Positions 7,773 through 56,218 of a stretch of 64,000 nucleotides of DNA are shown piece after piece. Origin of the DNA: Eledone cirrhosa (taxonomy: Eukaryota); assembly GCA_964016885.1 (NCBI GenBank), contig OZ024745.1:61318001-61382000 (forward strand), given 5' to 3'. Made by a program: the position numbers and the translations under genes. The notes under the pieces were generated by a model. It was not told the origin of the DNA. It was given only the letters and a program-made list of their open reading frames with translations, and made no database searches. Position 1 is the stretch's first letter; every line of letters begins with the position of its first letter.

Positions 7773-7784
7773 ATATATATATAT

Positions 7785-8319
7785 AAAATAAAATAATGAA
7801 GTCAAATATTTAAAATTTGGCTTCGTTTATTAAAGATGTACTGCTATATATATTTCGGTGACATCATTGGCTGTGACCTCTTCAAAAAGTCTATAGAAAT
7901 TTCTATAGACTTTTGACTGAGGAATGTTCTCACAACTGACCAATGGGAGGAGAGAATGTCCTATGACGCCGAAATTCGTTTGTTCGAATTCATATGATTC
8001 CAGTTCCTCAGAGAAATAACAACCCAACCAGGAGCTGGACATATCGATGTATTGACTGAGTAAAACACACTTCAACAACATGTGTACCTGTCTCTACCAC
8101 CCACACCAATTCGGACTGCCTGAAGAGGTCACAGCCAATGATGGCTGTCACCGAAATATATATAGTAGTACATCTTTAATAAATGAAGCCAAATTTTAAA
8201 TATTTGACTTCATTATTTTATTTTACATTACTCCGGAGTAACCAAACCAACCTGCGTACTTCGTCGAGTGCTCCAATCTGCATATTGAGGTGTCGGTAAA
8301 CAACCAACATATACTCAAA

Positions 8320-8454: not shown

Positions 8455-9074
8455 TAGTATAAAGAAAGTGCTCAGTTCACTCTTTGGTTTGGGATGTCAT
8501 TGAGATTGATAATTATGCCGACAAATACATCTCTGAAGCTGCAATCCACCTGTCGAGTACTGCGACGAGAATTGAGCAAAAGAAGCGATGCCAGTAAACG
8601 TCACTGATAGACACATATATCCTTGAATCGATGGTGATAAACACAGCTGTTGTAAATACACGAAATATTTTTTTTTATTAGAGCTACCAGAGCAAAAATA
8701 GTTGAAGCGATAAGTGATGCAGCATTCACTTCATGGCCGTTGCCACGAATTGGTTTGACGATTTTAAGTGGTAATGTTCAGTCAAAATAGACAAGAAAAA
8801 TAAAGATAAAACTATTATTTAAATTCAATCATAATTACACAAACATGTACCGCTGTAAAATATAGGTTAGCGAGTTTGGCTATATTTGATACTTATCTGC
8901 AGACAAACTGGACAAGAAAGGATGGGCCAAATTCGAAGCATTCCGGACAAATGACTCACAGCGCATAGACAACCAACTCACTGCTGTCCAACCGAAACTA
9001 AAACGTGAAACTAAAAAGAAATTGTGTAATTATGGCTGTGTTGCCTTTTTTAATCATGAACTATATATATATAT

Positions 9075-9330
9075 AGAAATCACATGAATCAAAGTTCTGT
9101 TTAAACCATTTATTAGCTTACAATTGTTTCGTCCAAACCGAGGTTTGGTGTCTCCGGAGCAATTTTTCAATGATTGTTTACATACATGACCTCCTTTCTA
9201 ACACAAGAGATATACAGAAACATATGTATATATCGATGCACAATGTTATTACATTGAGCTATTTATCTTACTGGTAATAAGGTAGTAATAAATTACTGTC
9301 TTTCACTGTTTAGGGTTTAAAATATATATA
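9075..9330. mobile_element. Diverged relative of the terminal repeat of the 13925-19513 PLE, with degenerate HHR (9116-9160, -)
   Basis: 9075-9210 aligns to 14090-14225; 9245-9330 aligns to the reverse complement of ~13985-14065; core reads CCGGAGA...GAAAC-AATT-GTA. Confidence 0.7.
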
Positions 9331-9374
9331 ACTATAAAAAGTTTTAGTATATACATAATCATAAATAGTACCCT

Positions 9375-9914
9375 TAAGCACTGTATGCTTAATTAAAAGC
9401 ATTTCGAAGACCTTACGCTATTGTTTTAGAGTAGTGACAGTCTCACTTACTTCAATTTTCAGCAAACAGGGGAGATAAAGCTGACAGAGCTCTGTTTCGC
9501 ACTTTTGGTGCATATCAAAGTTAACTACTCCGCCTGTTTGCTGAAAATTATGAATGTTTGATTCTTATAGAATTCCAGTAATAATCAGGAACTGATTATA
9601 CAGAGCGGTTGCCGGTCAAGCAGAAATTAAAAATTAGAATTGGTGCTCTGAAATAGCTATATATATATGAATGTATATATAGTGTATTTTGCAATACACT
9701 GTATGCTTAATTAAAAGCATTTCGAAGACCTTATGCTATTGTTTTAGAGTAGTGACAGACTCACTTACTTTGCTGAAATTAAAGTAAGTGAGTCTGTCAC
9801 TACTCTAAAACAATAGCATAAGGTCTTCGAAATGCTTTTAATTAAGCATACAGTGTATTGCAAAATACACTATATATACATTCATATATATATATAGCTA
9901 TTTCAGAGCACCAA

Positions 9915-9921
<7 letters not shown>
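9375..9921. repeat. Tandem-plus-fold-back repeat element
   Basis: 9380-9450 repeated at ~9697-9770; ~9630-9770 inverted at ~9781-9921. Confidence 0.75.
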
Positions 9922-9973
<52 letters not shown>

Positions 9974-10086
9974 ATAATGATAAATTTGAAGACTAAAATA
10001 TGTATAATATGTATATATTTATATAATATATATACATATATATATTTATATACATATATATTAAATAAATATATACATATTATACC

Positions 10087-10124
<38 letters not shown>

Positions 10125-10140
10125 TAAAATAACAGATTAA

Positions 10141-10191
10141 AGTTTAAGCAAAGAATCGCTGCTTTCACCCTTAACGGGATCTTCTGAAACT
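10141..10191 (-). ncRNA. Variant type I hammerhead ribozyme (CAGAAGA core) in the PLE1 3' end
   Basis: Minus strand: AGTTT-CAGAAGA-tCCC-gttaa-GGGt-GAAA-GCAG-cgattct-TTGC-TT-AAACT. Confidence 0.6.
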
Positions 10192-10320
10192 AACAAAGTC
10201 AATCTGTCAACGCAGAAGTGAATATTTCAAAAAACGTTGCAAACGGAGGAAGACAGGAAGACGATACTTTGGTTCGTGGAAACGCTCCCTGGCAAAGAAC
10301 GGGAAAAAACGAAGATAATG

Positions 10321-10500
10321 TATTACTAGTACTTTATTTTATCGACCCCGTAAGGATGAAAGGCAAAGTTAACCTCGGCGGGATCTGAGTTCAAATCCCG
10401 CCGAGGTTAACTTTGCCTTTCATCCTTACGGGGTCGATAAAATAAAGTACCAGTAATACACTGGGAAATTGCTGGCCTTGTGCCTAACGTAGAAACAATT
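10321..10500. mobile_element. Head-to-head palindromic SINE pair inside the PLE1 3' UTR
   Basis: 10321-10384 is the reverse complement of ~10395-10458; centre contains the B box GAGTTCAAATCC. Confidence 0.8.
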
Positions 10501-10873
10501 ATTTGGAGCGTTGAAAACAATTACACGCAAAGACAAAACCACGTTTATGGTATAAAAGAAGTCGTAGACTAATATTCTATTAGGTGGTTCATAGAGACGT
10601 TCTCTGGCAATGAACGGAAAAAACGAAGATAATACGTCATATGTGGAGCGGGAGAACAATTGCACGCAAAGACAAAACCACGTAAATGGTATAACTGAAG
10701 TCGTAGACTAAAATTCTAACTAGGAAACCGAATGATTCTCGGCTTCAGAGTTAACAATAAAGTAAATAAAATACAGTGGTAATTGAAATTAAATAAATAC
10801 ATACACGCATCCATATCCGCACATACACAAGCATACGCGAAAACACTCGCCATAGGTATACAAATATACGCAC

Positions 10874-10904
<31 letters not shown>

Positions 10905-11295
10905 CGTGTATACAAATAATTAAATAAACGTATATAAATAAATAAATACGTATATAACAAGCGCACACACATACCTACATGTAAATACACATATGTTCGG
11001 AGACGTACGTCAACCAAAACACGAAGTACACATATACACACACCCTACATACGTACGAACCCGCATACTCACACAGACACAAAACTCACGTATACACATA
11101 ACGAAAAGTATATGTACCAGAATATATAAAATATACGCCATAACATATACAATCAAATATACGTACGAGAAAGTATACGTACTTTCACCAAACATACAGG
11201 TAATAGATACTTACCTATACAAATAAGTAATGGTATAAACATAACATATACTTAGCTACCACATCAAGACGTAAAATATCCGCGTATAGATCGTA

Positions 11296-13420
11296 CTATC
11301 CGTTAGGGTATAATGTGGGGCTGTAATACAGGAAAGTTTTGTGCAATTTATGTTTACAAGCCGAAATTGCCTCAGATTTTTTGTTTAAGATGTGGTCTTT
11401 GGCGTAGATTATTTCCAGGGCCTCAGCGGCGCAGAGGTCACATGGTCTTTTATTACCGTCATACGATCTAGCCCTAGCTAGGATCTCCCAGTGTAACTTA
11501 TATTGGGTGTTGTTGTCTTTTAGACTCCAGATATAAGCTGAACGTGACGTCATATTCCTTCTTAGAGGGTAACGAAAAGAATGGGTATGCATGTAAAGAC
11601 GCTGCTTGAATCTATTGGCGGTTAACCCTATGTAGGCCCTACGGGACGTGGGTGTTTCAACCTTACATTTGTAGACAATGTTACTAGAGAGGCATTTACC
11701 GGATAGGGGCAGTCAACCCGATTCCTACAATTACAGTTAGTACTAACTACAGGGTTGCACGTGTTCCTACGGCTAGGTAGTTTAGCTAAATTTGAAGCTG
11801 TGATGTTATGTGCAAGGTTAGGAGTCGTAGAGTAAGAAATTTTAATAGTATTTCTATTAAAAATTTTACTATATTTATGTGTAGGGGGAAAATGCTTCGT
11901 AATAAGGGAGAGAAAGATCTTAGCTAATGGTATGGCCACCTCCATATTATATGGTGGGTTATACCATATAATGCATCGGGATCTATTTCTTCTAGGTCTA
12001 TTCTCGTACTCTGTATATGCTATCTTATCGACAAATCCACTCCGAGCAAGAGCTTCATTGTAATATGTGGAATGGTCGTTGAAAATGTGCTCGTTAGTAG
12101 ATAGACGGGAAAGCCTCAAAGAAACGTTTCTTACCAGGTTCTTAGTTATGCTGGCAGGATGGTTAGAATGCTTACTTATGTAATTAAGCGTATCATTCGG
12201 CTTTCTATACCGGTAATACAAGCCATTCGATAAATTGAGGGTAACGTCGAGGTAATTAACGACCGAGAGGTTGGCCTCAACCTGTATAGAGAGGTTGAAG
12301 CCTTTAAAGAAGGCTGCGAGTCTTTTCTGAACCTGTCGCAAGCACGTGGGCCGCACCTAGTCATGGTCAAAAGACCATCATCACGGTACAAACCGCCGCC
12401 CACGTTGGCGAATTCGCTTTGATAGAGAAAAGAAGGAAAAGGCCGATAAGATCAGAAACCTCCGCAGAATCGCTGGTGCCCATACTTACGTCGAATGGGG
12501 TACTATTAGGTTTTTTAATCCAAATAGAGTCGTCGAAATTAATCACCGACTTACAGGCATTGAGGATGACATTAACTTCGAAATCCTTAACCACTGTGAG
12601 TGTTTTAGCGAAATTGATAGCTCTAAGGAGTAGTGGTAAAGTGATGGAGGAGTAGTAATTATTGATGTCGAATTGGATAAAACGGCAATGTTCCTTGTTG
12701 CATATGCAGTTGAACCAATCAATCACCGCGAAAGAATTGTTCCACAGTGCAAGAGGGGCCAAACTTCTAATTTTAGGTATAACTCTATCAAGAATCCTTT
12801 TACTAAGTCTACCTAAATCGGGCTTTGTAGGGTTAATAAGCCGAATAGAAGGGTTGTTCGGAAAATTGAATTTGTGATCCTTCAGAGTAAAATGGGGAGA
12901 AATATGGTCCAGAGGTTCAGTCCCGTCCAGGATGTTGAGATCAGAGGTGATTTTAAACCCAGCATCGTTGATTTCATTAATTACGCACCGATTAGTTTTA
13001 CGGTAATCCTTAGTTACGGCATTATGTAGTAGTTGATGGTAAGTACTGCGCTCCACTTGATATAGATTGCCAGTTTTGCTGGAATGGACGTGCACGGCAT
13101 TAGAATCCTTAATAGAACGAATTCTATTCTTCAGGTCCTGTTGGAAGTAATTGCTCCTATTCCGAAATTTGATACTCCGTATGAGTTCCAAGACATCATT
13201 TTCGAAGGGTAGCAATGTTGGGTTACACGGAACGTTATTATAGGTTTTAAACCCAAATTTATCCTGTTTGTTGTCTGCTTTTCCCTGATTATTGAAATAA
13301 AAGGCACGCCAACGCAACCTTTTAATGAACGCGTCTGTTTTCTGTATCAGGAGTTTTAGGTGTTTTCCTGCTTGGTACGGGTATGTTCTTTGTAGAAATA
13401 TTCAGATGTTGTTTCTGCAT
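11296..13420 (-). pseudogene. PLE polyprotein (RT + Cys-rich linker + GIY-YIG endonuclease), ~708 codons, four frameshifts
   Basis: Stitched: MQKQHLNISTKNIPVPS..FIKRLRWRAF..FIQFDINNYY..MGTSDSAEVSDLIG..GLYRDDGL..CNCRNRVDCP(L)SGKC..NIVYKC..AYIGLT..FKQRLYMH..CDLC..CKH; shifts near 13363, 12413, 12325 and 11707. Confidence 0.9.
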
Positions 13421-13501
13421 GATGAATATAAGTCAATAGAGTGCTCAACCAAGGGAGCCAAATAGTAATAATAATAAATTAGTCTTCAAATTTATTATTA
13501 T

Positions 13502-13813
<312 letters not shown>

Positions 13814-14129
13814 ATTATATATGTATATATTTTATATATATATATATTATATATGTATATATTTTATATATATATATAATATATATATATTATATATGCA
13901 TATATTTTATATATATATATATATAGTATTAGTTATACTATTTATGGTTATGTAAACACAAAACCTTAAGCAGTTGTAAGTATTTTACACACACCCTAAA
14001 TAGTGGTAGGCAGTAATGTATTACTACCTTATTACCAGTAAGTTAAGTAGCTCAATGTAAAAACATCAGATGATTTACAGAGCAGTTATATGAAATATAA
14101 GAATCAAAGAACTGTTCAAAACATTATTG

Positions 14130-14176
14130 TGCTTACAGCTGTTTCCTCCAAACCGAGGTTTGGATTCTTCGGAGCA
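14130..14176 (-). ncRNA. Variant hammerhead ribozyme, inverted copy of 19424-19470
   Basis: Exact reverse complement of 19424-19470. Confidence 0.7.
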
Positions 14177-15670
14177 ATTTATTAATGCATGGACAGTTAT
14201 ATGACCTCCTTTTCAGCCGAGAGACATACCAATACATATTCAAACATTGATACATATTCAAACATTGTGGGTCAACATTCATTACAGAATTTAGAGTGGC
14301 AGTACACACTTCGAGATTACATTTATATTAATAGGTACAATCAAAAATCAAAGATATAGGTTAAAGTACAACATGAAGATAAGTGGTTATATAGTGCAAA
14401 TGTTATATGTGTGGCACGCATGTGCGTCTTGTTTATATAGTGTGGCAGAGAGATATGTGTGGTAGAGGCACTTAGGTAGGTAAATAAGAGTGTTAGGTTG
14501 GTAGATCTGGTGGCAAAGTCTTTATATGATTGATGTAGTCTGTGTGTGGAGAAATATTATAAGCATTAAAGATAGTGCAAGCATTAAAAGTGTTATAAGT
14601 ATTGGAGATGCACAGCGCAGGGATGTCAAGTAATTCATGTACTTCGGCATTTTCATGGTCAAGGGAGTGTATATTTCGATTATATGCCTTTCACATAATC
14701 CACGACAATCCAGTTAGAGATCGTAGTCTGGTGTTCTTTAGTTCGATACAGGAGGTTGTTACGTTTCGAGAAACGCCATTGAATACCGGAAGAGTGTGTG
14801 TGGCTAAGGGGAGTTAATGCATGCGGGGAGGTAACTCTGGGGTTTCCATATCTAGCCATTAAAATGTGTCCCAATATAGACCCTAAAATTCTATGGTGAG
14901 GTGCACCTTCCAAGAGAGACTTTTAAAGCATAAAGTGTACTAACTATAGAGTAGTTTAACTAAATTATGCTGAAGGTGATCATATTATTATTAAGGTGGA
15001 TTAACCCATCATAAGGTGCTACAAATGGAAATTATAGATGATGAGCGAGGATTCTAAATTAATGATCTCTGTGGTTGTAGTCTGCTCATATGGCCAGGCG
15101 CGGTGATTGCAGGATTGCTTCAGGACCCAATGATCTCTGGTAAGATCTGGGTCATCACTTGCTACATTGGATGTCGAAAGATAATCGTCCCCAGGCAGGC
15201 CAAAGGTCAATCCGCAGTCCTCGCGACCCCTCTCTGACCGTCAGATCATCCATATACGTACAACCCGCACGGCAGTTGCATTGCATTCACTCACTGCGCT
15301 CCGCAGCCCGGTCCTACTGGTCAACAGCGCTAATCGATTAAATCATTTTACATCTGTCTAAGGAAGGTGTTTCCTCTGCCCAACACCATCCAACCGATCA
15401 ATTCATGCTCAAATTACCCTTAGAGCGGTGTAGTGCCGTCCAAGTGGGTGGATGTTGTCACACCTGCCGTAGAGGTATAAATGGGTATTTTCCCTGCGAA
15501 GGGTTCCAGAGGGATGTCGTTGTTTGTGTTATAATGGATCAGCTAGTGTTGGGTATGTAGTATAGGGTGTGTCTCTGGTGTTTGATGCTAGATGTGGTGT
15601 TAGGTTCCAGTCCGACATTGCTATATATAGGGCTTAAAGTTTCCATTATGATAGAAACAAATCTAACAAC

Positions 15671-17977
15671 TTGAATAATACTAACAATTTTGACTCCTTC
15701 GGCTTTAAAACCTTTAAAAGCCCCCCTCATAACACTCTACTTAACTCCTTTGAAAATGACCTAGTTAAACTAGTTAAGAACATTAAATACAATAAGCACC
15801 ATATTAGAAGCAACACCTTCCTAAACAAACTTAACACTTCTATTAGTGGATTCAAAACTAGTAATAAAATTATTGTACACGCAGATAAAACTAATAACAT
15901 ATACAGCCTAGATTATATTACTTATAGAAAGTTTATATATAATGAACTACATAAAAGCTACAAAAAAACCACCTTGAAAAACTTAGAAGATATTAATGTA
16001 GAGGGTTATAATATAGTGTCTAAACTAGGACTACAGAGGCATACACAACCTTTCACTCCGAACCCCCCTAGATTCTCTCTGAAGGACCATAAGGAGAACT
16101 TCATCAGCAACCCCACGATAAGACTTATCTGCCCTTCCAAGTCCGACATTGGTATTATCAGCAAGAAGATTTTGGATAAAATCATCCCACAAATTAAACA
16201 CAAGATACACCTTAAACAATGGGGAAATACGGGTGAAGTAATTGAATGGTTTAAGGATATCAAGAATAATAAGAACAAAAAATTTGTTCAATTTGATATC
16301 AATTCATACTACACCTCTATTTCCCCTATCCTATTAAATAAGGCACTTATCATGGCCATGGCCAATAGCGACCTGACTAGAGCCCAGGTTGATGTCATCC
16401 TTGCGGCCCGTAAAACCATAATCACCTTCGAGGACCAACTATGGACACGCAAGGATACGCACAACAACTTCGACATAACCATGGGATCTAGTGACTCGGC
16501 GCAGGTCACTGATTTGGTCGGCCTATACCTCCTCAATGAAATCCATAAAGACCTCCCTTACCTCAACGGTGGTTTGTACCGCGATGATGCACTTCTACTC
16601 ATAGAATATAAAAAATTTAATATAGAAAGAACTAGAAAACAACTGCATAAGACATTCAAAAACTTTAACCTTAGTATCACCATGGACAAAAACACTAAAA
16701 ATGTTAACTTCCTAGACGCCACACTATACCTAGACTCAAAAATATATACACCTTTCCATAAGCCTAATGAGAAACTTATTTACGTAGATACCAAGTCTAA
16801 TCACCCTAGATCAATATTAAACTCTATCTCTAAGGGGGTGTCCAATAGAATCTCTAGTCTGTCCTATAACGCAAACATATTTAGCAAAAACTCACAATAT
16901 TATAATCAAGCATTAGCTAGCTCCGGCCATAATATAGAAATTGAGTTCCTACCTAAGAAAACACATAGCTACAACATCATCTCGCACAACATGTCCATGA
17001 GGAAATCTAATAATAGGAATAGCAACCACAAGTGCACCAAAGCGGAGGGTGCCACCGGAAGTAACCATTACCATGGAAACTACTGTGAGGCCTTAGGAGG
17101 AAGCAACACACCAAACACTAAAAGCAAAAATAGAAGAAGAAATAATACATTTTTCAACCCTCCTTTCAACCTAAATGTCTCCACCAACATACCTAGGGCT
17201 TTCTTCTCACTACTAGATAAAAACTTCCCTCTAGGACACAAGTACCACAACCTCTTAAACAAAAACACCATTAAAATCTCTTACTCTACGACGCCTAACT
17301 TAGCATACCACATAGCTAGCAGCAATAATAGTAAAATTAGTTCTTACTTCCAACAAACAAAATCACAACGGGATGCAAACCCTCTAAATACCACTGTAGC
17401 AAGCAACAATAGCAACGGCAGTAACAATAGAAATAACACTAGTATAAGTAATAACACCAGGGTTGTCAACCCGAACACCCAAAATCCTATATCCACCACA
17501 CAGACTTCCGCATTGCATTATAACCAGCGGACTAACGCACAGAATAATTGTAACTGTAGAGCTAATAGAACCTGCCCTTTAGATAAAAAATGCCTAACCA
17601 AGGATGTCATATACTCATGCACAGTCACGACTAATAACTCTTCAGAAACCTATGTAGGCTCCACTTCTAACTGCTTCAAAATCAGATATAACTCGCACAT
17701 CCACTCGTTCAAAAAGCACAGCCTAGCCAACTCCACCTCACTTTCTAGCTACATACACTATCTAAAATCTAAAAATAAACCATACACACTCAAATGGGAA
17801 GTGATAGGCAGCGCGACCTCGTACAAACCACCTAATAAATTCTGTAACCTCTGTATACTAGAGACACACAATATTATCTTCTCCAACCGTAACCTACTTA
17901 ACAAAAAATCTGAGGTGTTTGCAACTTGCCAGCACCGCCTCAGACATTCCTTCCAAAACTTTAAGCCCTATATATAG
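15671..17977 (+). CDS. PLE reverse transcriptase-GIY-YIG endonuclease polyprotein, N-terminally truncated (open frame from 15638, no native ATG)
   Basis: FVQFDINSYY, MGSSDSAQVTDLVG, GLYRDDAL, CNCRANRTCPLDKKC, DVIYSC..TYVGST..FKIRYNSH, CNLCILE, CQH; homologous to the PLE1 ORF. Confidence 0.92.
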   Translation: MNNTNNFDSFGFKTFKSPPHNTLLNSFENDLVKLVKNIKYNKHHIRSNTFLNKLNTSISGFKTSNKIIVHADKTNNIYSLDYITYRKFIYNELHKSYKKTTLKNLEDINVEGYNIVSKLGLQRHTQPFTPNPPRFSLKDHKENFISNPTIRLICPSKSDIGIISKKILDKIIPQIKHKIHLKQWGNTGEVIEWFKDIKNNKNKKFVQFDINSYYTSISPILLNKALIMAMANSDLTRAQVDVILAARKTIITFEDQLWTRKDTHNNFDITMGSSDSAQVTDLVGLYLLNEIHKDLPYLNGGLYRDDALLLIEYKKFNIERTRKQLHKTFKNFNLSITMDKNTKNVNFLDATLYLDSKIYTPFHKPNEKLIYVDTKSNHPRSILNSISKGVSNRISSLSYNANIFSKNSQYYNQALASSGHNIEIEFLPKKTHSYNIISHNMSMRKSNNRNSNHKCTKAEGATGSNHYHGNYCEALGGSNTPNTKSKNRRRNNTFFNPPFNLNVSTNIPRAFFSLLDKNFPLGHKYHNLLNKNTIKISYSTTPNLAYHIASSNNSKISSYFQQTKSQRDANPLNTTVASNNSNGSNNRNNTSISNNTRVVNPNTQNPISTTQTSALHYNQRTNAQNNCNCRANRTCPLDKKCLTKDVIYSCTVTTNNSSETYVGSTSNCFKIRYNSHIHSFKKHSLANSTSLSSYIHYLKSKNKPYTLKWEVIGSATSYKPPNKFCNLCILETHNIIFSNRNLLNKKSEVFATCQHRLRHSFQNFKPYI

Positions 17978-19423
17978 CAATGTCGGACTGGAACCTAACA
18001 CCACATCTAGCATCAAACACCAGAGACACACCCTATACTACATACCCAACACTAGCTGATCCATTATAACACAAACAACGACATCCCTCTGGAACCCTTC
18101 GCAGGGAAAATACCCATTTATACCTCTACGGCAGGTGTGACAACATCCACCCACTTGGACGGCACTACACCGCTCTAAGGGTAATTTGAGCATGAATTGA
18201 TCGGTTGGATGGTGTTGGGCAGAGGAAACACCTTCCTTAGACAGATGTAAAATGATTTAATCGATTAGCGCTGTTGACCAGTAGGACCGGGCTGCGGAGC
18301 GCAGTGAGTGAATGCAATGCAACTGCCGTGCGGGTTGTACGTATATGGATGATCTGACGGTCAGAGAGGGGTCGCGAGGACTGCGGATTGACCTTTGGCC
18401 TGCCTGGGGACGATTATCTTTCGACATCCAATGTAGCAAGTGATGACCCAGATCTTACCAGAGATCATTGGGTCCTGAAGCAATCCTGCAATCACCGCGC
18501 CTGGCCATATGAGCAGACTACAACCACAGAGATCATTAATTTAGAATCCTCGCTCATCATCTATAATTTCCATTTGTAGCACCTTATGATGGGTTAATCC
18601 ACCTTAATAATAATATGATCACCTTCAGCATAATTTAGTTAAACTACTCTATAGTTAGTACACTTTATGCTTTAAAAGTCTCTCTTGGAAGGTGCACCTC
18701 ACCATAGAATTTTAGGGTCTATATTGGGACACATTTTAATGGCTAGATATGGAAACCCCAGAGTTACCTCCCCGCATGCATTAACTCCCCTTAGCCACAC
18801 ACACACTCTTCCGGTATTCAATGGCGTTTCTCGAAACGTAACAACCTCCTGTATCGAACTAAAGAACACCAGACTACGATCTCTAACTGGATTGTCGTGG
18901 ATTATGTGAAAGGCATATAATCGAAATATACACTCCCTTGACCATGAAAATGCCGAAGTACATGAATTACTTGACATCCCTGCGCTGTGCATCTCCAATA
19001 CTTATAACACTTTTAATGCTTGCACTATCTTTAATGCTTATAATATTTCTCCACACACAGACTACATCAATCATATAAAGACTTTGCCACCAGATCTACC
19101 AACCTAACACTCTTATTTACCTACCTAAGTGCCTCTACCACACATATCTCTCTGCCACACTATATAAACAAGACGCACATGCGTGCCACACATATAACAT
19201 TTGCACTATATAACCACTTATCTTCATGTTGTACTTTAACCTATATCTTTGATTTTTGATTGTACCTATTAATATAAATGTAATCTCGAAGTGTGTACTG
19301 CCACTCTAAATTCTGTAATGAATGTTGACCCACAATGTTTGAATATGTATCAATGTTTGAATATGTATTGGTATGTCTCTCGGCTGAAAAGGAGGTCATA
19401 TAACTGTCCATGCATTAATAAAT

Positions 19424-19470
19424 TGCTCCGAAGAATCCAAACCTCGGTTTGGAGGAAACAGCTGTAAGCA
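19424..19470 (+). ncRNA. Variant type I hammerhead ribozyme (CCGAAGA core) in the PLE2 3' end
   Basis: TGCT-CCGAAGA-aTCCAAACCtcGGTTTGGAg-GAAAC-AGCT-GTA-AGCA; same strand as the ORF. Confidence 0.72.
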
Positions 19471-19517
19471 CAATAATGTTTTGAACAGTTCTTTGATTCT
19501 TATATTTCATATATTTC

Positions 19518-19595
<78 letters not shown>

Positions 19596-19605
19596 GTATA
19601 TATTT

Positions 19606-19681
<76 letters not shown>

Positions 19682-19882
19682 ATATATGTCTATATTATAT
19701 ATATATATATATATTATATATGTGTATATTATATATATATATATATATGTATATTATATATATATTATATATGTATATATTATATATATATATATTATAT
19801 ATATATTATATATGTAATATATTATATATATATATATTATATATACATTATATATGTATATATTATATATATATATATATAA

Positions 19883-20343
19883 ATGTATAGAAATTTCGTA
19901 TTTCTAAAGAAACACGGTTTTGGGAAGCCGTAGCTATGCAAACACCGGGGCTAACGCCCTCTAGTGGTGTCCAGTAGAAGCAAGGGGGACAACCGTCTAT
20001 GCATTTTAGGCTTGACTGGCCTTCTTTAGGACGGCCCCTCCCTTCGCTCTGCAACTGCTGGACATGAAAACAGTCGTGAATATACAGTTTTCTCGTCTGT
20101 GTAAATGAGGTGATTAACCTCATTTGCATATGAAGCGTTTTCATATATTCTCGACTGTTTCAAGTCCAGCAGTTGCAAGCGGCGGGAGGGACCGTCTTGA
20201 AGAAGGCCAGTCAAGACTGAAATGCATAGACGCTTGTCTTCCTTGCTTCTGCTGGACGCCACCAGAGGGCGTAAGCCCCGGTGCTTGCATAGCTACGGCT
20301 TCTCAAAACAATGTTTCTTTAGAAATAGGAAATTTCTATACAT
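19883..20343. mobile_element. ~460-bp imperfect palindrome (MITE-like fold-back)
   Basis: Arms align end to end with scattered substitutions; apex near 20113; TA flanks. Confidence 0.75.
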
Positions 20344-20469
20344 ATTTGTATAACGCTATGATACTTGAAGAGAAATCCTATATATATATATAATCCTATA
20401 TATATATATATTATATATATATATAATATATATATATAGGATTATATATATATAGGATTTCTCTTCAAG

Positions 20470-20500
<31 letters not shown>

Positions 20501-20546
20501 TAATATATATATATAATATATATATTATATATATGATATATATAGT

Positions 20547-20633
<87 letters not shown>

Positions 20634-20722
20634 TATATTATATATATAATATATATATATATAATATAATGTCCAGAAATAGCCGTCGGAACGGCTTGAG
20701 CTCTGCCGTCGGAGTCATACTT

Positions 20723-20790
<68 letters not shown>

Positions 20791-20791
<1 letters not shown>

Positions 20792-21732
20792 CTCTATATA
20801 TAAAACTGAGGATGTCAGTCTGTGTGTGTGTGTGAGTTTGAATCACTAAAACTCGAGAACCACCCAATCCACTGTTTTCAAACTTTACACATCTAATACT
20901 TATGTATCAGGGAGTGTTCTGAGCAAAAAAATTTCTGAGCAATCAAAATTTTCAATGTCCTAGGGACCGCATTAGGCGATTTAGCGATCTCTCTCTATAA
21001 TTCTTAGTCTTTCTCTTTTTAGATAGATACATACATATAACGTCGCGCCCTTACAATATCTGTCTGTATGCCTGACTGTCTGCATTATGTCACTTCCCTG
21101 AGGATGTCTGTCAGTGTGTTTGTGTGTGTGTGTGTGTGTGTTTGTGAGTTTGAATCCTTAAAACTCGAGAAGTACCCAACCGATTTTTTCAAACTTTACA
21201 TGTGTATTACTTATATTTCAGGGAGTGTTATGCACATAAAAAATGCAACTTTTTGATCCACTAGGTGAAAAACTGCATTTCTTCAGGTTTTTAGGGTTTT
21301 TTTTGAGTCGTTACGTCAGACTGATTTCCTTGAAATTGTAACTATGTATTAGTCAGTCTATTCTTCATACCGTGAGCAAAGAAAATCCAACTTTTTTTAT
21401 GGCCTAGGGCTCGCATTAGGTGAAAAACTTCCTTTGTTCAGCTTTTTAGAACTTTTTGAGACGTTACGTTTCGCCGATTTTCCCGAAATTTCAAGGCATA
21501 TTATGCACATAAAAAAAAATTATTTTCTTGATCCACTAGGGCCCGCATTAGATGAAAACCTGCATTTTTCCTGCTTCATCGAGAAAAAATCTTAAAGATT
21601 ATCCAGCCATCAGAGTATTCGGTTTATTTTCTTTACATATTGTCCACGCATGCAGTTTTTCCACGATTAGGTTTGTTGGCGGCCCGCTTTCCAAAATACC
21701 TTATCCCGTGCAACGCCGGGTACCACTGCTAG
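20791..21732 (+). mobile_element. Non-autonomous Helitron
   Basis: 5' TC (TCtctatatataaaac), 3' hairpin cccgtgcaacgccggg followed by CTAG; inserted between A and T. Confidence 0.8.
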
Positions 21733-21838
21733 TATATATATATATATTATATATATATATTATATATATATATATTATATATATATATTATATATATATA
21801 TATTATATATATATAATATACATATATATATATATAAT

Positions 21839-22354
21839 ATAAGATCAAAAGATGGTTAAAAGAGTTCCAAGTATTTTATTATGCGCATTTCAAAAACAAA
21901 TATCAACATGGGATGTTATTTGCCTTCTCATCAGATAAAATAGGGAGACATGATATGAAGCTTAAAAAACACTTGCGATCAGTGAAATGTTAAATCAACA
22001 TATGAAAAATAAAGTAAGATGGATATATGAGATTGGGAAAAAAAGGAGGGGGGAGGGGTAGGAAAAGGTAAGGAAGAGGAAGAAAGAAAATAAAGGATGA
22101 CAGGGTAGGAGTATAAGAAGGAAGGATGAGAGAGGAGGAGAAATGAGTGATAGAGAGAGAGAAATAGCCTTTACAACTGAGAAAACATTGTCTTACAGAG
22201 AGAAAGTAAAAAACCGTTGAAAGATGATAGATAATATAAAAAGATTTTGAAATTAAAAGTTAATGAGGTTTATGAATGGTCAACAGGCTGCGGTTCGCAC
22301 ACACATCCCTGCTGACCATTATCACAACAACGAACCTCCTTACTACTACTACTA

Positions 22355-26047: not shown

Positions 26048-26413
26048 CAGTTATATATGTATATATACAGAATAGAGATAAACGAGAATGCGTAAATGTG
26101 TATATAAATTTATACAATTTTTGTATATAGACATGTAAACATATCGCATATACGTATTTTTCATGGAAATTGAAAACCTGTTTATAATGATATCTATCAT
26201 ATTGTATGTATTATACACACATACATACATATATATATATATAACCATACTATACAATCCCAAGTATCGAGTAATCTGGTGAGTATTGGTCTTACTGAAT
26301 CCATATATATATATATATTAAAATTATAAGCTTTCACCGTATTTTTGACTAAAGAAATTTTTAGCCTGATAGTGGGGTTTAGAACCCTCAGAGAAATGGA
26401 AAAAGATGAGTAT

Positions 26414-26484
26414 TGACGTACATGGGAGTCGAACCCACATCTTTGGTTATCCAGACCGCTGTGCTACCATTACACCAACACATC
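26414..26484 (-). tRNA. tRNA-like sequence (nominal GGA anticodon, short variable loop) within fold-back 26321-26665; probably pseudo-tRNA or SINE head
   Basis: GATGTGT-TG-GTGT-AATGGTA-GCAC-A-GCGGT-CTGGATA-ACCAA-AGAT-GTGGG-TTCGACT-CCCAT-GTACGTC-A, then TTTTT 9 nt downstream; plus-strand copy ~26493-26588 has an internal duplication. Confidence 0.55.
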
Positions 26485-26715
26485 ACCCATGTGATGTGTT
26501 GGTGTAATGGTAGCACAGTAGTCTGGTGTAATGGTAGCACAATAGTCTGGATAACCAAAGATGTGGGTTCGACTCCCATGTACGTCAATACTCATCTTTT
26601 TCCATTTCTCTATCAGGCTAAAAATTTCTTTAGTAAAAAATACGGTGAATGCTTATATTTCTAATTTCAAACTCGCTCACTGTTTCAAAACATACATACT
26701 TAATATATATATATA

Positions 26716-41012: not shown

Positions 41013-41839
41013 TGATGACGTTGGTAGTTTTGATGTTAACGATGATGATGATGATATAGATGACGACGTGAAGAAATTAGAAGAATGAAACGTATAATGA
41101 CGACGACAGAGAAGTGTGGAGAAGGAGAATTGTTAATGATAGCCACGTGGACGATAATGAATAGTGAGGATGATAATGACGGAAGAAGTACATGATGTGG
41201 TGGGTGGCGTAGAATATGTCAATGTATTTCTAAGTAGGGTTGTAAGTGGTGATGATGGAATGTGACAAATGGTTGGCTATACAGAATGGAGGGGCTGGAG
41301 ATAATGGTATCTTAAGATGGAATGTAAGTGAAGAAAGAAAGATAAGATTTAGATATTCAATGGGAAAATATGATAGTCTCTTTCCCCCAGTCATTTATCG
41401 TCATTATTAATACTCACAATAGTAGTGGTGATAGGTATGAGAATAAAGGCGATGATTGTGATGATGAGGACGCCACCACCGCCACCACCACCACCACCAC
41501 CACCACCATTACAACTGTTTCAATCATCATCATCATCATAATAACCACTGTATACACCTTTTTCATTCTCAACATAGTTTATCATCATTACAATAATAAT
41601 CACCATGTTTACCTTCTTCTGATTCTCATTGTTAACATCTAAAGTCGCATTGTCCTTTCTTCTTCTTCCTACCCCAACTGTCGCTACAAACAGACCCCCG
41701 ACGCTACTCTCAACACAGTAAACAACATAAACCGTTAAACGAGTCAAACAAGGAAGTTTCTATCGTGTCGTTTGACCTGTTAGAAAAAAGCAACCAAATA
41801 TTCCTCAAATCCATCTCACCCTACAATCTTTTTAATGAA

Positions 41840-43275
41840 GTCACATTGAATAATGTGGTCCTAAATACATTGTGTAACTTTTAATGGGGTAACATTGAAT
41901 AATGTAGTCCTAAATACATTGTGTAACTTTTAATGGGGTAACATTGAATAATGTGGTCCTAAATACATTGTGTAACTTTTAATGGGGCCACATTGAATAA
42001 TGTGGTCCTAAATACATTGTGTAATTTTTAATGGGGCCACATTGAATAATGTGGTCCTAAATACATTGTGTAACTTTTAATGAAGTCACATTGAATAATG
42101 TGGTCCTAAATACATTGTGTAACTTTTAATGGGGCCACATTGAATAATGTGGTCCTAAATACATTGTATGACTTTTAATGAAGTCACATTGAATAATGTG
42201 TCCTAAATACATTGTATGACTTTTAATGGGGTAACATTGAATAATGTAGTCCTAAATACATTGTATGACTTTTAATGAAGTCACATTGAATAAGGTAGTC
42301 CTAAATACATTGTGTAACTTTTAATGGGGCCACATTGAATAATGTGGTCCTAAGTACATTGTGTAACTTTTAATGAAGTCACATTGAATAATGTGGTTCC
42401 AAATACATTGTGTAACTTTTAATGAAGTCACATTGAATAATGTAGTCCTAAATACATTGTGTAACTTTTAATCGGGTAACATTGAATAATGTGGTCCTAA
42501 ATACATTGTGTAACTTTTAATGAAGTCACATTGAATAATGTGGTCCTAAATACATTGTATGACTTTTAATGAAGTCACATTGAATAATGTAGTCCTAAAT
42601 ACATTGTGTAACTTTTAATGGGGTAACATTGAATAATGTGGTCCTAAATACATTGTATGGCTTTTAATGGGGCCACATTGAATAATGTGTCCTAAATACA
42701 TTGTATGACTTTTAATGAAGTCACATTGAATAATGTGGTCCTAAATACCTTGTGTAACTTTTAATGGGGCCACATTGAATAATGTGGTCCCAAATACATT
42801 GTGTAACTTTTAATGGGGCCACATTGAATAATGTGGTCCCAAATACATTGTGTAACTTTTAATGAAGTCACATTGAATAATGTGGTCCTAAATACATTGT
42901 GTAACTTTTAATGGGGTAACATTGAATAATGTGATCCTAAATACATTGTATGACTTTTAATGAAGTCACATTGAATAATGTGTCCTAAATACATTGTGTA
43001 ACTTTTAATTGGGCCACATTGAATAATGTGGTCTTAAATACATTGTGAAACTTTTAATGGGGTCACATTGAATAATGTGGTCCCAAATACATTGTGTAAC
43101 TTTTAATGGGACCACATTGAATAATGTGGTTTTAAATACATTGTGTAATTCTTAATGGGGTCATATTGGATAATGTGGTCCCAAATACATTGTATGGCTT
43201 TTAATGGGGGTCACATTAAATAATGTGATCTTAAATACATTGTGTAACTTTTAATGGAGATACATTGGATAATGA
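41840..43275. repeat. 49-bp minisatellite, ~29 copies
   Basis: Unit acattgaataatgtggtcctaaatacattgtgtaacttttaatggggcc, with gaagtc and ggggta variants. Confidence 0.95.
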
Positions 43276-44879
43276 ACATGTCTGCAACGTCTTTTATTAG
43301 TAGGTCTGCTTGATCATGGCTGACTTGGAATTCAACAATAACAATAACACAATTAAAACCAGCCACGACGCCTCCTTATCAGCTTTACGCTACTGCGACC
43401 TCAACTAGATCATTACTACAACCACCATCACGACCACCAAAACCATCAGCTCCGCTACTAAAACCACCAACACTACCACCACTCCCTGACCATGCATACA
43501 TGTCTTTCCTCTCCACACTATCGATATTGTCCTCAGGAAAGACAAGAACGGTTAAAGTTGGACCCAAGTGGCAGTTCAGGCGAACTCAGAACGCAAATCA
43601 CCGAAAGTAATACCATAAGACATCATGTCCGAAGCTCTAAGAATTTCGACAAAATACCACCCTGAAGTGACACTTTATTTATTGACTACGAAAGTATGAA
43701 GAGGAGAGTTCACCTCAGCAGTATTTGAAACCAGAGAGGAATGAGTCAAAATAAATACCGCGAGGTACATAATCCAATGACCCCATAATTCTATCAATTT
43801 ACTGCCTAAAGTAGGACACTGGATTGAGCTGAATAGAGCACCAGCCACACCCCAATTAACAACGAAGATACCCTGAGCCAACAAGAAAGCCTCTCTGTGG
43901 TCACTCGACGTTTTAGAAATAACTGCAAAATTGCCCTCAAATAACCCCCCTCCCCCATTCAAGGCATATTAATCAATCTAGTGAAAGATATACTTAAAAA
44001 AAAACTAAAAAAAAATAAGATTTGAAAGTATCTTTAATCCTACATCGGCAATATTAGAGCTGACCCTGGGCTGAACATTAACTAGTGTTCCTAACATAGA
44101 TACAAAGGTGGGATTTGTTTGGAGAGTGTGAGGTTTCGGGTGAGCTTTCAGTCGGATAAATAAAGGAGTACTTGACTAATACTATTTTATCGACCATGGA
44201 AGGATAAAATGCAAAGTTGACCTCGGCGGGATTTGAACTCAGAACGAAAAGAACGTAAACAGTCGACAAGCCGACGTTCTAACAATCGGTCAAACAATAA
44301 TATTATAATCATCAACAACAAAAGCAGGAACAGTAGAAACATCAACGGCATTAATGACTGACACAGCAGTGATCGACTAAAAAAAATTGTAGACGCTTCT
44401 CGAAAACATCACAAGGTAACATAAAAAAATAACAAGCCAAATTATACAGCTTAGATAGCCAGCGTGATACAAACTAAGAATAAAACCACACACACAAGAA
44501 ATAGAAATAGATACAAAGCACCAGAAAAACAAGGAAATTAAACAGTGGAAATAAAGAAGATAACTAAAGAAAATCAGAAAAATACTAAACCTTTAAGTCA
44601 AATACATTAAAATACATCAAATGGCATTTGATCCTTTGATAATTTCGACGACGATGAGCATACGGTTGTTTAGTGATCTGAACATCCAACTCGTGAATTA
44701 GCGTGTAAGCTGTTACGTATTCTACAGACATATACACCCGTAACATAATTTCCAAGTCGTATCAAAGTAATACAACAATAGGACAAGGTTGGGCCATTGA
44801 GTTACAGGTAGAATTTATTTGACGGCTTTCCACATAGTTTTCGTTGACTCACTTTCACCCACAAGAATTTGGTCGACGT

Positions 44880-45905
44880 GGCATCTGTGTCTCATGTCTT
44901 TTACCAACATCGAGCTCACAGCGTGGCATCTTGGTCTAGTGTTTTTTTTTACCACAGCATCGGGTTCACAGTGTGGCATCTTGGTTTAGTGTTTTTTACC
45001 ACAGCATCGGGTTCACAGTGCGGCATCTTGGTTTAATGTTTTTTACCACAGCATCGGGTTCACAGTGCGGCATCTTGGTTTAATGTTTTTTACCACAGCA
45101 TCGGGTTCACAGTGCGGCATCTTGGTTTAATGTTTTTTACCATAGCATCGGGTTTACAGTGTGGCATCTTGGTTTAGTGTTTTTTACCATAGCATCGGGT
45201 TTACAGTGTGGCATCTTGGTTTAATGTTTTTTACCACAGCATCGGGTTTACAGTGCGGCATCTTGGTTTAATGTTTTTTACCATAGCATCGGGTTTACAG
45301 TGTGGCATCTTGGTTTAATGTTTTTTACCACAGCATCGGGTTTACAGTGCGGCATCTTGGTCTTGTGTCTTTTACCATAGCATCGGGTTCACAGTGTGGC
45401 ATCTTGGTTTAGTGTTTTTTACCACAGCATCGGGTTCACAGTGTGGCATCTTGGTTTAATGTTTTTTACCACAGCATCGGGTTCACAGTGCGGCATCTTG
45501 GTTTAATGTTTTTTACCACAGCATCGGGTTCACAGTGTGGCATCTTGGTTTAATGTTTTTTACCATAGCATCGGGTTTACAGTGTGGCATCTTGGTTTAG
45601 TGTTTTTTACCATAGCATCGGGTTTACAGTGTGGCATCTTGGTTTAGTGTTTTTTACCATAGCATCGGGTTTACAGTGTGGCATCTTGGTTTAATGTTTT
45701 TTACCATAGCATCGGGTTTACAGTGTGGCATCTTGGTTTAGTGTTTTTTACCATAGCATCGGGTTTACAGTGTGGCATCTTGGTTTAGTGTTTTTTACCA
45801 TAGCATCGGGTTTACAGTGTGGCATCTTGGTTTAGTGTTTTTTACCATAGCATCGGGTTCACAGTGCGGCATCTTGGTCTTGTGTCTTTTACCACAGCAT
45901 CGGCT
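44880..45905. repeat. 47-bp minisatellite, ~21 copies
   Basis: Unit accacagcatcgggttcacagtgtggcatcttggtttagtgtttttt. Confidence 0.95.
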
Positions 45906-47032
45906 CCACAAAGATGCCTTTAAAAATCTTATGCGAACGGCAAGCTGTATATTGAGAGAATGAAGCCTAAGCTTAACCTTATCGCACTTATCTATTATTC
46001 TTGATTATTTCTCTAAAATGCCAACCATTGTGGTATAAACGAGGCTTTCTTATAATTCCATTACTGTGATCATATGAATGCATTTTTTTGATTTGAAAAA
46101 AAAATTGTTTTGTTTTTATTTCTATATATAAATTTGTGTTCCTTCATCTATTTTGTTTTGTTATAACTGTGTCCAATCTTTATGCGATTAAAGTTTGTTA
46201 TTTCGTTTTATCGACTTTTGATGTTATTAGATAGTGTAATTCAGAAGAATTATACAAATTCGAGACTGCAATTTTGAGAAAAGTTTATGACGGTGATTAA
46301 AAACTACAATATGCCGGAAGCATCTTTCAAATTTTCTCTATGAATAAACATAAATCCTAATTTTTTTTACATCCGAACACAAATGATTTGATTTCAAGAA
46401 AAATAAAATTCTTTTTATTGAAAAATTCAAGGATTTTGTAGGTTTACGATTGTTTGATCGAAAGTACATCTAAGCGTACATGTACACGCCCGCTCACACA
46501 TACACACACATGTCCACCCTACAAACATCTTGTGGTTTACTCAGGCATTATACATCTTATTGTGCTACTGGCTTTTGCAGTACTTGTGTTTCACAGGGGT
46601 TGTGTTACTTAATTTAACACACAACACTTCTTTTCCATACATAAGATTTTCTTATAGGGAATTTTGAACTCATAATCCGGAGATAATGATTTCTTTATTA
46701 GCAACACAGGGCTCATAATAATTCGGAGATAATGACAGTCAATGTTATAACATTGTGAGGGTGGTAAATCAGTAGAATTGGTAGAGCATCGGATAAAATA
46801 CCATTGTGGTATTTGTTCTGACTCATTATATACGTCGTAAATAGTAACATAGTTCTATTACCAAGCAAAGTACAATATATGTGCATATACGTGTGTGTAT
46901 TCACATACAAGATAACTAATAAACATATACATAAATGGACATAGACTTTATTGCGTGTTGCCTATAAACCTAATGTAAGGGATCAACAACTCTGGTGATT
47001 TATTCAAATGTATTTTGCTTTCCTCTTTTCAG

Positions 47033-54429: not shown

Positions 54430-54619
54430 GTACACACACATGTATACACACATATATATATACACACATATATACACACACACATATATATATATACATA
54501 TATGCATACATATATATACATATATATATATATATATATGCATATATATATACATATATGCATACATATATATACATATATACATATATATATGCATACA
54601 TATATATACATATATATAT

Positions 54620-56184: not shown

Positions 56185-56218
56185 TATATATATATGTATA
56201 TGTGTATGTATATATGTG

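Follow-up and report, generated by a model that had tools for sequence, protein, structure and literature searches.

Architecture of the PLE2 insertion

Within the window, the 64,000-nt stretch of Eledone cirrhosa DNA that was analyzed, lies an insertion of a Penelope-like element (PLE), PLE2, which is made up of two 5′-truncated copies in head-to-head orientation with differing fixed outer ends, set in a single TA tract. Its parts are as follows:

13709..13925, unstranded: left flank, a compound (TA)n microsatellite that is the target site, with a 42-nt compound unit common to the right flank in the same orientation
13926..14086, minus strand: 161-nt tail beyond the short end, found in the inverted copy only, with the long end at 13926 (run contigs; 81% alike to 9243-9370)
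14087..15642, minus strand: left arm, an inverted 5′-truncated copy that comprises the 3′ UTR together with the final 22 nt of the ORF (self-comparison)
14130..14176, minus strand: hammerhead-like motif, left-arm copy (relaxed pattern)
15641..15642, unstranded: head-to-head junction with a probable 2-nt (perhaps 3-nt) microhomology; the arm end holds the first two bases of a conserved Phe codon, and a contig of run X1 starts at 15641
15641..17977, plus strand: 5′-truncated RT and GIY-YIG ORF of the Hydra type (ORF, alignment, folds, motifs)
16961..17140, plus strand: second, low-confidence insert, 18.3% N (alignment, model)
17375..17551, plus strand: Asn-rich low-complexity insert, 30.5% N, in the thumb-to-EN linker (alignment, model)
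17956..19513, plus strand: right arm, the ORF end and a 1,536-nt 3′ UTR finishing at the short end (self-comparison; run X6 has the same end followed by (TA)n)
19424..19470, plus strand: minimal type I hammerhead-like motif (relaxed pattern, fold)
19514..19885, unstranded: short stutter at the terminus, reaching about 19526 and followed by the right-hand stretch of the compound (TA)n microsatellite (sequence)

Comparison of the window with itself aligns the left arm (1556 nt) and the right arm (1558 nt) at 99.87% identity over 1,558 aligned bases, with 0 mismatches and 1 gap, their only difference being a 2-nt indel in a CA/GT run; an exact inverted repeat of 1.55 kb is far beyond chance expectation. 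The right arm starts 22 nt ahead of the end of the stop codon, and hence the inverted copy comprises the complete 3′ UTR and the last 7 codons of the ORF. On the outer side, the left arm reaches 161 nt further than the right one before (TA)n begins, whereas the right arm ends at 19513 and passes through the short stutter into the TA tract. The initial annotation had thus described this arrangement accurately: a near-perfect 1.55-kb inverted repeat around an ORF, arms trivially different in the length of a CA repeat, a whole 3′ UTR copied in inverted orientation upstream and a left arm longer by about 160 bp. The truncated sense copy by itself measures 3,873 nt, and the whole unit of the family probably spans about 4.2 kb.

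Both flanks belong to one target microsatellite. All three exact matches in the window to a 27-nt compound TA unit fall in the two flanks of PLE2, which share 42 nt in the same orientation; in 11 other TA-rich stretches the corresponding figure is 4-16 nt. A target-site duplication cannot be read within such a TA tract.

A resemblance to a TIR transposon, to which the initial annotation had likened the unit, is superficial, given its asymmetric ends and an ORF without a transposase. We accordingly rejected a TIR DNA transposon as a candidate: symmetric termini are absent, the repeat is flanked by the 161-nt tail at one end alone, and the predicted folds of the ORF are those of an RT and a GIY-YIG nuclease. 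A DDE transposase was likewise discarded, the Pfam DDE_3 match scoring 14.5 bits against a cut-off of 28.6. In annotation, copies of this kind can be taken for fold-back or TIR elements, and their ORF escapes Pfam.

The truncated ORF and its Hydra-type protein

The open frame (15638-17977, 779 codons from stop to stop) opens with SFHYDRN after an upstream stop at 15635-15637, has its first Met at codon 239 and runs without an internal stop or frameshift over 2.3 kb. Its Phe-2 aligns with the Phe that immediately follows the RWxA motif in homologues and in PLE1, another PLE of the window; this confirms the earlier placement of the cut just after RWxA and suggests that about 42 N-terminal codons are absent. 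The truncation has also removed the region of the RWK motif, which reads RWR in PLE1 and RWK or RWR in the homologues. With no start before codon 239 this copy is unable to yield a full-length protein; its start codon missing and its sense half devoid of the tail, it is probably inactive and most likely was dead on arrival.

No Pfam match to the ORF was obtained at E<=0.01, and a sequence search of the PDB did not recognize it. Among 8,000 scored candidates we recovered 209 homologues, the best of them 36-40% identical over nearly the full length. In a structure model of the whole ORF, built from a 13-sequence alignment (mean pLDDT 73), TERT structures are the top three fold matches (3du5, E 5.2e-9), consistent with the presence of YRDD at residue 314. 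The endonuclease fold was searched with a separate model of the last 145 residues, whose top three matches are I-TevI (Z 8.2, rmsd 2.5, 89 aligned), T4 EndoII (6.9) and UvrC (5.7); Foldseek ranked the same GIY-YIG folds first, none of them at E<=0.001. The Y, Y-G, R, H, E and N of the GIY-YIG region are invariant in 12 aligned sequences. The protein further displays the Hydra-type motifs DKT (83), CxCX5C as CNCRANRTC (638), CxxC as CNLC (736) and CxH as CQH (764). There is no CCHH, a single, unconserved Cys lying between the IY and YVG motifs, and no insertion-in-fingers domain, the RT3-RT4 spacing being that of the homologues and, by eye, that of the Hydra rows in the text of Fig. S1. The first reading of the element as a PLE with RT and GIY-YIG domains is therefore upheld by the best fold matches and the motifs.

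Two low-confidence inserts, one of them the Asn-rich segment, break up the C-terminal half. A quick-method tree of 47 proteins, drawn from unnamed homologues and one Argonauta protein, has a fully supported branch that separates PLE2, PLE1 and 7 homologues (one being that from Argonauta hians) from the other proteins; the named Hydra proteins were compared by eye only.

A long 3′ region and two family ends

Part of the stretch is present in fifteen runs, and contigs from four of them (X1, X2, X3 and X6, representing four organism labels and three studies) were compared with positions 13926-17955. The tail is joined to the arm with 0 differences in the X1 and X2 contigs, whereas the X6 contig stops at the short end (a loose end at 14087) and continues as (TA)n. 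The family thus has two fixed ends that lie 161 nt apart, the short one 47 nt and the long one 208 nt past the predicted hammerhead cut.

From stop codon to hammerhead PLE2 has 1,451 nt, in contrast to 48-516 nt (median 112) in 24 related loci, and its 161-nt tail compares with 30-40 nt in published elements. The long 3′ region is common to copies under all four organism labels; the arms are long because the 3′ UTR of the family is long, and not because the repeat is functional. The view that the arm and its ~1.45-kb 3′ region are of unusual length therefore holds for the distance between stop and hammerhead, but long inverted copies and long spacers had already been described: File S1 of PMC8557442, among the available parts of that work, gives a 966-nt inverted copy for Penelope-13_HM of the Hydra clade, and the text available for PMC3846280 reports spacers of 0.9-1.5 kb before the 3′ pLTR of Pen1_Av.

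A fossil inverted piece of the ORF in the antisense UTR, hinted at by a weak tblastn match to the C-terminus of one homologue (E 8e-4), was considered and rejected: the homologue profile scores -5.2 bits at best, within the range of 40 shuffles (best -1.1). No tRNA was detected within the element.

A variant hammerhead-like motif in both arms

Each arm carries a hammerhead-like motif whose core reads CCGAAGA (at 19428 on the plus strand and 14172 on the minus strand), the canonical form being CUGANGA. A pattern for the canonical core finds nothing in either arm, and a relaxed pattern finds the motif at 19424-19470 with its mirror at 14176-14130. It comprises a 4-bp stem I, the U4C core, a 7-bp stem II, GAAA and a short stem III with a palindromic loop, with cleavage predicted after GUA at 19466. 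The MFE structure is predicted to form stems I and II, with a stability that is not significant (z -1.54, 17/200 shuffles equally good); among 27 UTR windows folded, none goes past z -2.05, the value of the window with the hammerhead. A hammerhead is not among the Rfam matches to 9000-22000 at E<=1, which are miRNA-like hairpins, all below gathering scores and outside the arms. Of the claim that the 3′ UTR carries an HHR, what remains is a hammerhead-like motif in both arms, but with a U4C variant in place of a canonical core.

The variant is not private to this copy, as U4C is present in the contigs of runs X1, X2 and X6, with no other letters covering the site, and the C recurs at 9157 in a 77%-alike older copy, the mini-copy described below, whose core reads CCGGAGA. 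In the PLE1 family position 4 is an A in 5/5 copies inspected, two of which are also altered at position 5. The downstream motif was found in 24/77 related metagenome loci, all 24 reading CTGA, the remaining 53 being too short or missed by the pattern. Further, U4C occurs in one unrelated PLE in L032 and so is not unique to the PLE2 family.

According to the available text of PMC3088659, a viroid hammerhead with the U4C variant has far lower activity in vitro and is functional in vivo. Canonical hammerhead motifs are described as universal in the Hydra clade in the accessible portion of PMC8557442, and the accessible portion of PMC11167929 reports self-cleavage to be dispensable for PLE insertion in vitro. 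A conserved change at position 4 in a clade described as having canonical cores offers a natural test of whether PLE hammerheads must cleave.

Head-to-head pieces elsewhere in the window

An older relative with the same geometry lies upstream of PLE2:

9063..9370, minus strand: related mini-insertion of greater age that has both ends as in PLE2, an inverted tail piece (9243-9370) joined to a sense, hammerhead-bearing 3′ end (9063-9225), then (TA)n (window comparison)

The two pieces of this mini-copy have no template overlap, their stops being about 20 nt apart. PLE1 also begins with a short inverted tail piece, and its own two ends are about 149 nt apart. Including this PLE1 5′ end, ends of PLEs or ends with a hammerhead meet head-to-head in five more inverted pairs of the window, at 173-1887, 7781-8228, 13463-13506, 13554-13624 and 54619-55690, and palindromic junctions are found at three places (near 7870-7900, 13463-13506 and 13554-13624). 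The arms of older inverted pairs have diverged, being 93.5% and 98.8% alike. The head-to-head arrangement is therefore routine in this genome, with PLE2 as its longest and least diverged case. Opposite-strand pairs of hammerheads, 100-700 bp apart, are on record in the text available for PMC4209133. Short inverted pieces of 31-188 nt are present in 8/77 related metagenome loci, where short-read contigs are unable to hold long ones and so permit no comparison. With its two fixed ends, long UTR and both a large and a tiny insertion of the same geometry, the family makes a good test case for the formation of inverted copies in PLEs.

In run X3, depth over 13926-14195 is very high and mostly carries the letters of the older mini-copy; no copy number was taken from it.

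Two-ended priming as the probable origin of the inverted copy

We favor, with a probability of roughly 0.7, the interpretation that PLE2 is a genuine and probably young Hydra-type PLE insertion into (TA)n, in which two 5′-truncated copies were laid down head-to-head by two-ended priming. The GIY-YIG nuclease of the element would have nicked the TA tract on either strand, and from each of the two 3′-OH groups cDNA synthesis would then have begun on element RNA, in one case at the short end and in the other at the long end. The first cDNA, of 3.87 kb, would have halted with about 42 codons of the ORF still uncopied, and the second, of 1.72 kb, 22 nt into the ORF end, after which the two could have been joined at a 2-nt microhomology. 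One donor lineage would have served as template for both arms, and letters common to both arms would then be shared because the same donor lineage was copied twice.

In L1 twin priming two cDNAs are made from opposite target strands and joined at a microhomology; the two pieces do not overlap, and hence no long inverted repeat is produced. This geometry fits the non-overlapping mini-copy at 9063-9370, whereas the pieces of PLE2 both cover the same 1.55 kb. The two-primer step proposed here is drawn by analogy from L1 and from one in vitro study of another PLE clade. In that study, as far as its available text goes, the PLE protein PAc nicks and extends both strands, and reverse transcription has two internal start sites, one at either limit of the tail (PMC11167929).

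Whether the family shares the inversion point, a matter raised by the initial annotation, was examined in the run contigs. None of those listed (32 of 2,634 records, 4 runs) bridges the junction at 15642/15643, and contigs of X1, X2 and X6 continue without a break from arm sequence into the end of the ORF. The head-to-head junction is thus not a shared feature of the family and looks specific to this copy.

An unlikely, albeit credible, alternative is that the insertion is genuine and that its inverted arm was made in one track of synthesis, through template switching or fold-back self-priming. Self-priming from palindromes at head-to-head junctions has indeed been proposed in the available part of PMC3846280, and the three palindromic junctions elsewhere in the window would suit it. 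At the PLE2 junction, however, the palindrome is <=3 bp, the places joined are 2.3 kb apart on the template, and the outer ends, both here and in the mini-copy, are two different fixed ends of the family, all of which argue against it.

Age of the insertion and identity of the arms

The insertion had been regarded as very recent. The lack of substitutions between the arms makes this likely but does not prove it, for the argument presumes that the arms evolved independently, yet 7 letters stand in common in both arms. At 7/11 variant rows within the arm (among 40/192 variant rows listed) all depth of X2, X3 and X6 has the other letter, a divergence of 0.45%. Both arms carry the window letter at the variant sites, 9/11 of which were checked singly, and the arms are free of any substitution. 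Were changes gained independently at 0.2% per arm, zero differences would have P = 0.002. The 7 shared letters hence imply either a donor that had already diverged or a later homogenization of the arms.

Under the latter alternative the insertion is older than it appears and the arms were kept identical by arm-to-arm gene conversion, a process that occurs in chromosomal palindromes. It would account for the 7 arm sites that are equal in both arms and differ from the copies of three other organisms, as well as for the low P of zero differences, and would accord with the fact that all three ORF sites unlike all covering depth are non-synonymous; with 14/27 of the listed ORF sites silent, these numbers are too small to decide. 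Against it, an already-diverged donor explains the shared letters with no need of conversion, the fast-changing CA run does differ between the arms, the 2.3-kb ORF is free of stops and frameshifts, and older pairs in the window have the diverged arms noted above. The open frame and the diverged older arms favor a diverged donor over homogenization, and we regard gene conversion as quite improbable.

Relationship to described PLEs

Inverted 5′-truncated copies and one-sided tails of 30-40 nt are typical of PLEs (PMC8557442, available part). In that work (Craig et al. 2021) the proteins of the Hydra clade are characterized by an RWK motif near the N-terminus, DKT in place of DKG, a CxCX5C linker, and CxxC and CxH around E and N, with neither CCHH nor an insertion in the fingers. 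PLE2 agrees with members such as Hydra-1_Obim and Penelope-13_HM in having a single ORF with RT followed by GIY-YIG, these same motifs and no CCHH, as well as in its (TA)n target on both flanks, 3′ hammerhead-type motif and inverted 5′-truncated copy. It departs from two descriptors of the clade, which is generally short (<3 kb) and has a canonical hammerhead core: the Hydra families listed in the accessible portion of PMC8557442 measure 1,080-3,045 bp with canonical cores, as opposed to the unit of probably about 4.2 kb and the U4C core of PLE2. Its stop-to-hammerhead distance, its tail and its Asn-rich inserts likewise set it apart from those families, and judged by eye its protein belongs to a family different from that of Hydra-1_Obim. 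PLE2 thus works like a Hydra-clade PLE and possesses the protein motifs of that clade, and we class it as a variant.

Several of these traits recur outside the Hydra clade. The Penelope families of Adineta vaga, as described in the available text of Arkhipova et al. 2013 (PMC3846280), resemble PLE2 in the inverted pLTR, the optional one-sided tail, the spacer of Pen1_Av, the Asn-rich ORF inserts (seen in Pen2a-4) and the microhomology junctions. They differ in belonging to another clade, in pLTRs of about 200 bp and in a tail of 31 bp; moreover, the spacer of Pen1_Av varies among copies, whereas the long 3′ region of PLE2 is shared by copies under four organism labels. Similarly, PAc, a Poseidon element from Anolis (Frangieh et al. 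2024, PMC11167929, available part), has two internal ends that bound the tail, an AT-rich target, use of both strands and a hammerhead near the start sites. Reverse transcription of PAc starts about 111-118 nt within the ORF, and the PAc tail measures 30-40 nt, whereas the two ends of PLE2 lie further apart and, by analogy with PLE1, would be upstream of the start codon.

The headline structure of PLE2 is therefore known PLE biology, and what sets it apart are three family-level departures of degree, namely the long 3′ region, the long tail and the U4C core. In the literature consulted we found no description of a Hydra family with a long UTR, a long tail and a variant position 4; the consensus file of Craig et al., Repbase or Dfam may include this family. 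In its available part, a 2026 octopus repeat annotation mentions neither Hydra nor hammerheads (PMC13282606). The available portions of PMC9977147 and of a retrozyme preprint (10.64898/2026.07.22.740005) hold nothing decisive on PLE2.

As a tentative extension, it is conceivable that PLE2 and PLE1 belong to a Hydra-type sub-lineage, probably of cephalopods, in which the 3′ UTR was lengthened to 1-1.5 kb, the two RT start sites moved about 150-160 nt apart and position 4 of the hammerhead changed in two families (U4C and U4A) with the helices kept. The motif, cleaving weakly or not at all, might then mark where RT initiation takes place; and if a single RNA were primed at two ends, with displacement of strands, inverted repeats of kilobase length might arise as a matter of routine, with even the changes peculiar to the template present in both arms. 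If true, such repeats would continually supply the host with long dsRNA.

Possible consequences and integrity of the locus

Formation of dsRNA from the arms of PLE2 needs read-through transcription. A transcript of this kind would pair across 1.55 kb by construction, and PLE copies do yield small RNAs in rotifers according to the available text of PMC3846280, which could prompt the view that the unit now behaves like a DNA element of TIR type, or that it has been selected as a hairpin-RNA locus silencing its family. We deem this very improbable: the two ends are not symmetric, the unit encodes no transposase, the junction is not seen in X2 or X6, whose contigs continue unbroken from arm to ORF end, and the locus bears no sign of selection.

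Run X1 matches the window letter for letter, with low depth; it is possibly the source sample of the window, and so is not independent. Its contigs break at 14802 and 14794, where the arms part, beside 16286, 16361 and 16868, three positions at which other runs carry alternative letters, and at 15641. A model with one two-armed locus and one other copy, each seen once, places the arm breaks correctly and predicts a depth of 2.64 for record 3, for which 2.6 is reported. The X1 pattern would thus imply that both arms exist and that the second copy matches only from 15641, pointing to the 2-nt microhomology.

That assembly or library preparation created the left arm as an artefact (a fold-back chimera or misjoin), a reading akin to the assembly chimera named in the initial annotation, is very improbable, for, despite the lack of a listed contig across the junction and arms identical save for one microsatellite unit, the left arm runs on into 161 nt that are missing from the right arm and are genuine family sequence in X1, X2 and the mini-copy, where a fold-back of the right arm would instead continue into the right flank. 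Consistent with a genuine insertion, other runs and the mini-copy again show the tail and the short end, the X1 breakpoints are compatible with two arm alleles, and the two flanks derive from one compound microsatellite.

The neighbouring element PLE1 and its hammerheads

Copies of PLE2, the Hydra-type Penelope-like element with head-to-head copies, that are about 99.5% alike over 13926-17955 were recovered in four sequencing runs (X1, X2, X3 and X6) spanning four organism labels and three studies, and their depth varies by orders of magnitude among these runs. At the short end of PLE2, the last 7 bases are stuttered at 19514-19526 and followed by a TA run, as if synthesis had restarted at the end. 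The surrounding window features are:

173-1887, 7781-8228, 13554-13624, 54619-56189: further head-to-head pairs, their ends belonging to a PLE or carrying a hammerhead
9379-9921, 10319-10460, 19900-20340: a set of small hairpin elements, fold-back or MITE-like, around the PLE2 locus
9972-13506 (-): PLE1, a frameshifted Hydra-type element
10186, 39463, 52212, about 40020 and 40560 (all -): PLE1-family hammerhead motifs
26413-26485 (-): predicted tRNA-Ser(GGA)-like sequence, perhaps the head of a SINE
41830-43274, 44878-45910: two minisatellite arrays (49-bp and 47-bp units)

PLE1, which shares about 42% identity with PLE2, also has a long 3′ region, its hammerhead lying ~1.1 kb past the ORF end, a stretch that includes one small fold-back/MITE-like hairpin interrupting this region. 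Its ATG is at 13420, with its long end 45 nt upstream; its two ends are spaced by about 149 nt, and a short inverted tail piece forms the start of PLE1. The PLE1 5′ end lies ~500 nt from the PLE2 left arm, in the path of the arm's sense direction (13420-14086, -); hence, a putative promoter within this arm or its tail could read through into PLE1.

The five PLE1-family hammerheads inspected retain full helices, yet their cores are altered, reading CAGAAGA in three copies and CAAAAGA in two. The U4C change in the core of PLE2 (there CCGAAGA) is also seen, at 2928, in the hammerhead of a PLE of another type in the metagenome locus L032 (181-2990; DKG motif, 833-codon frame), which is situated directly upstream of a Hydra-type ORF.

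Other head-to-head pairs

Two of the further head-to-head pairs contain retrozyme-like tandem units (about 530 and 450 bp). The head-to-head junction near 7870-7900 forms a perfect palindrome.
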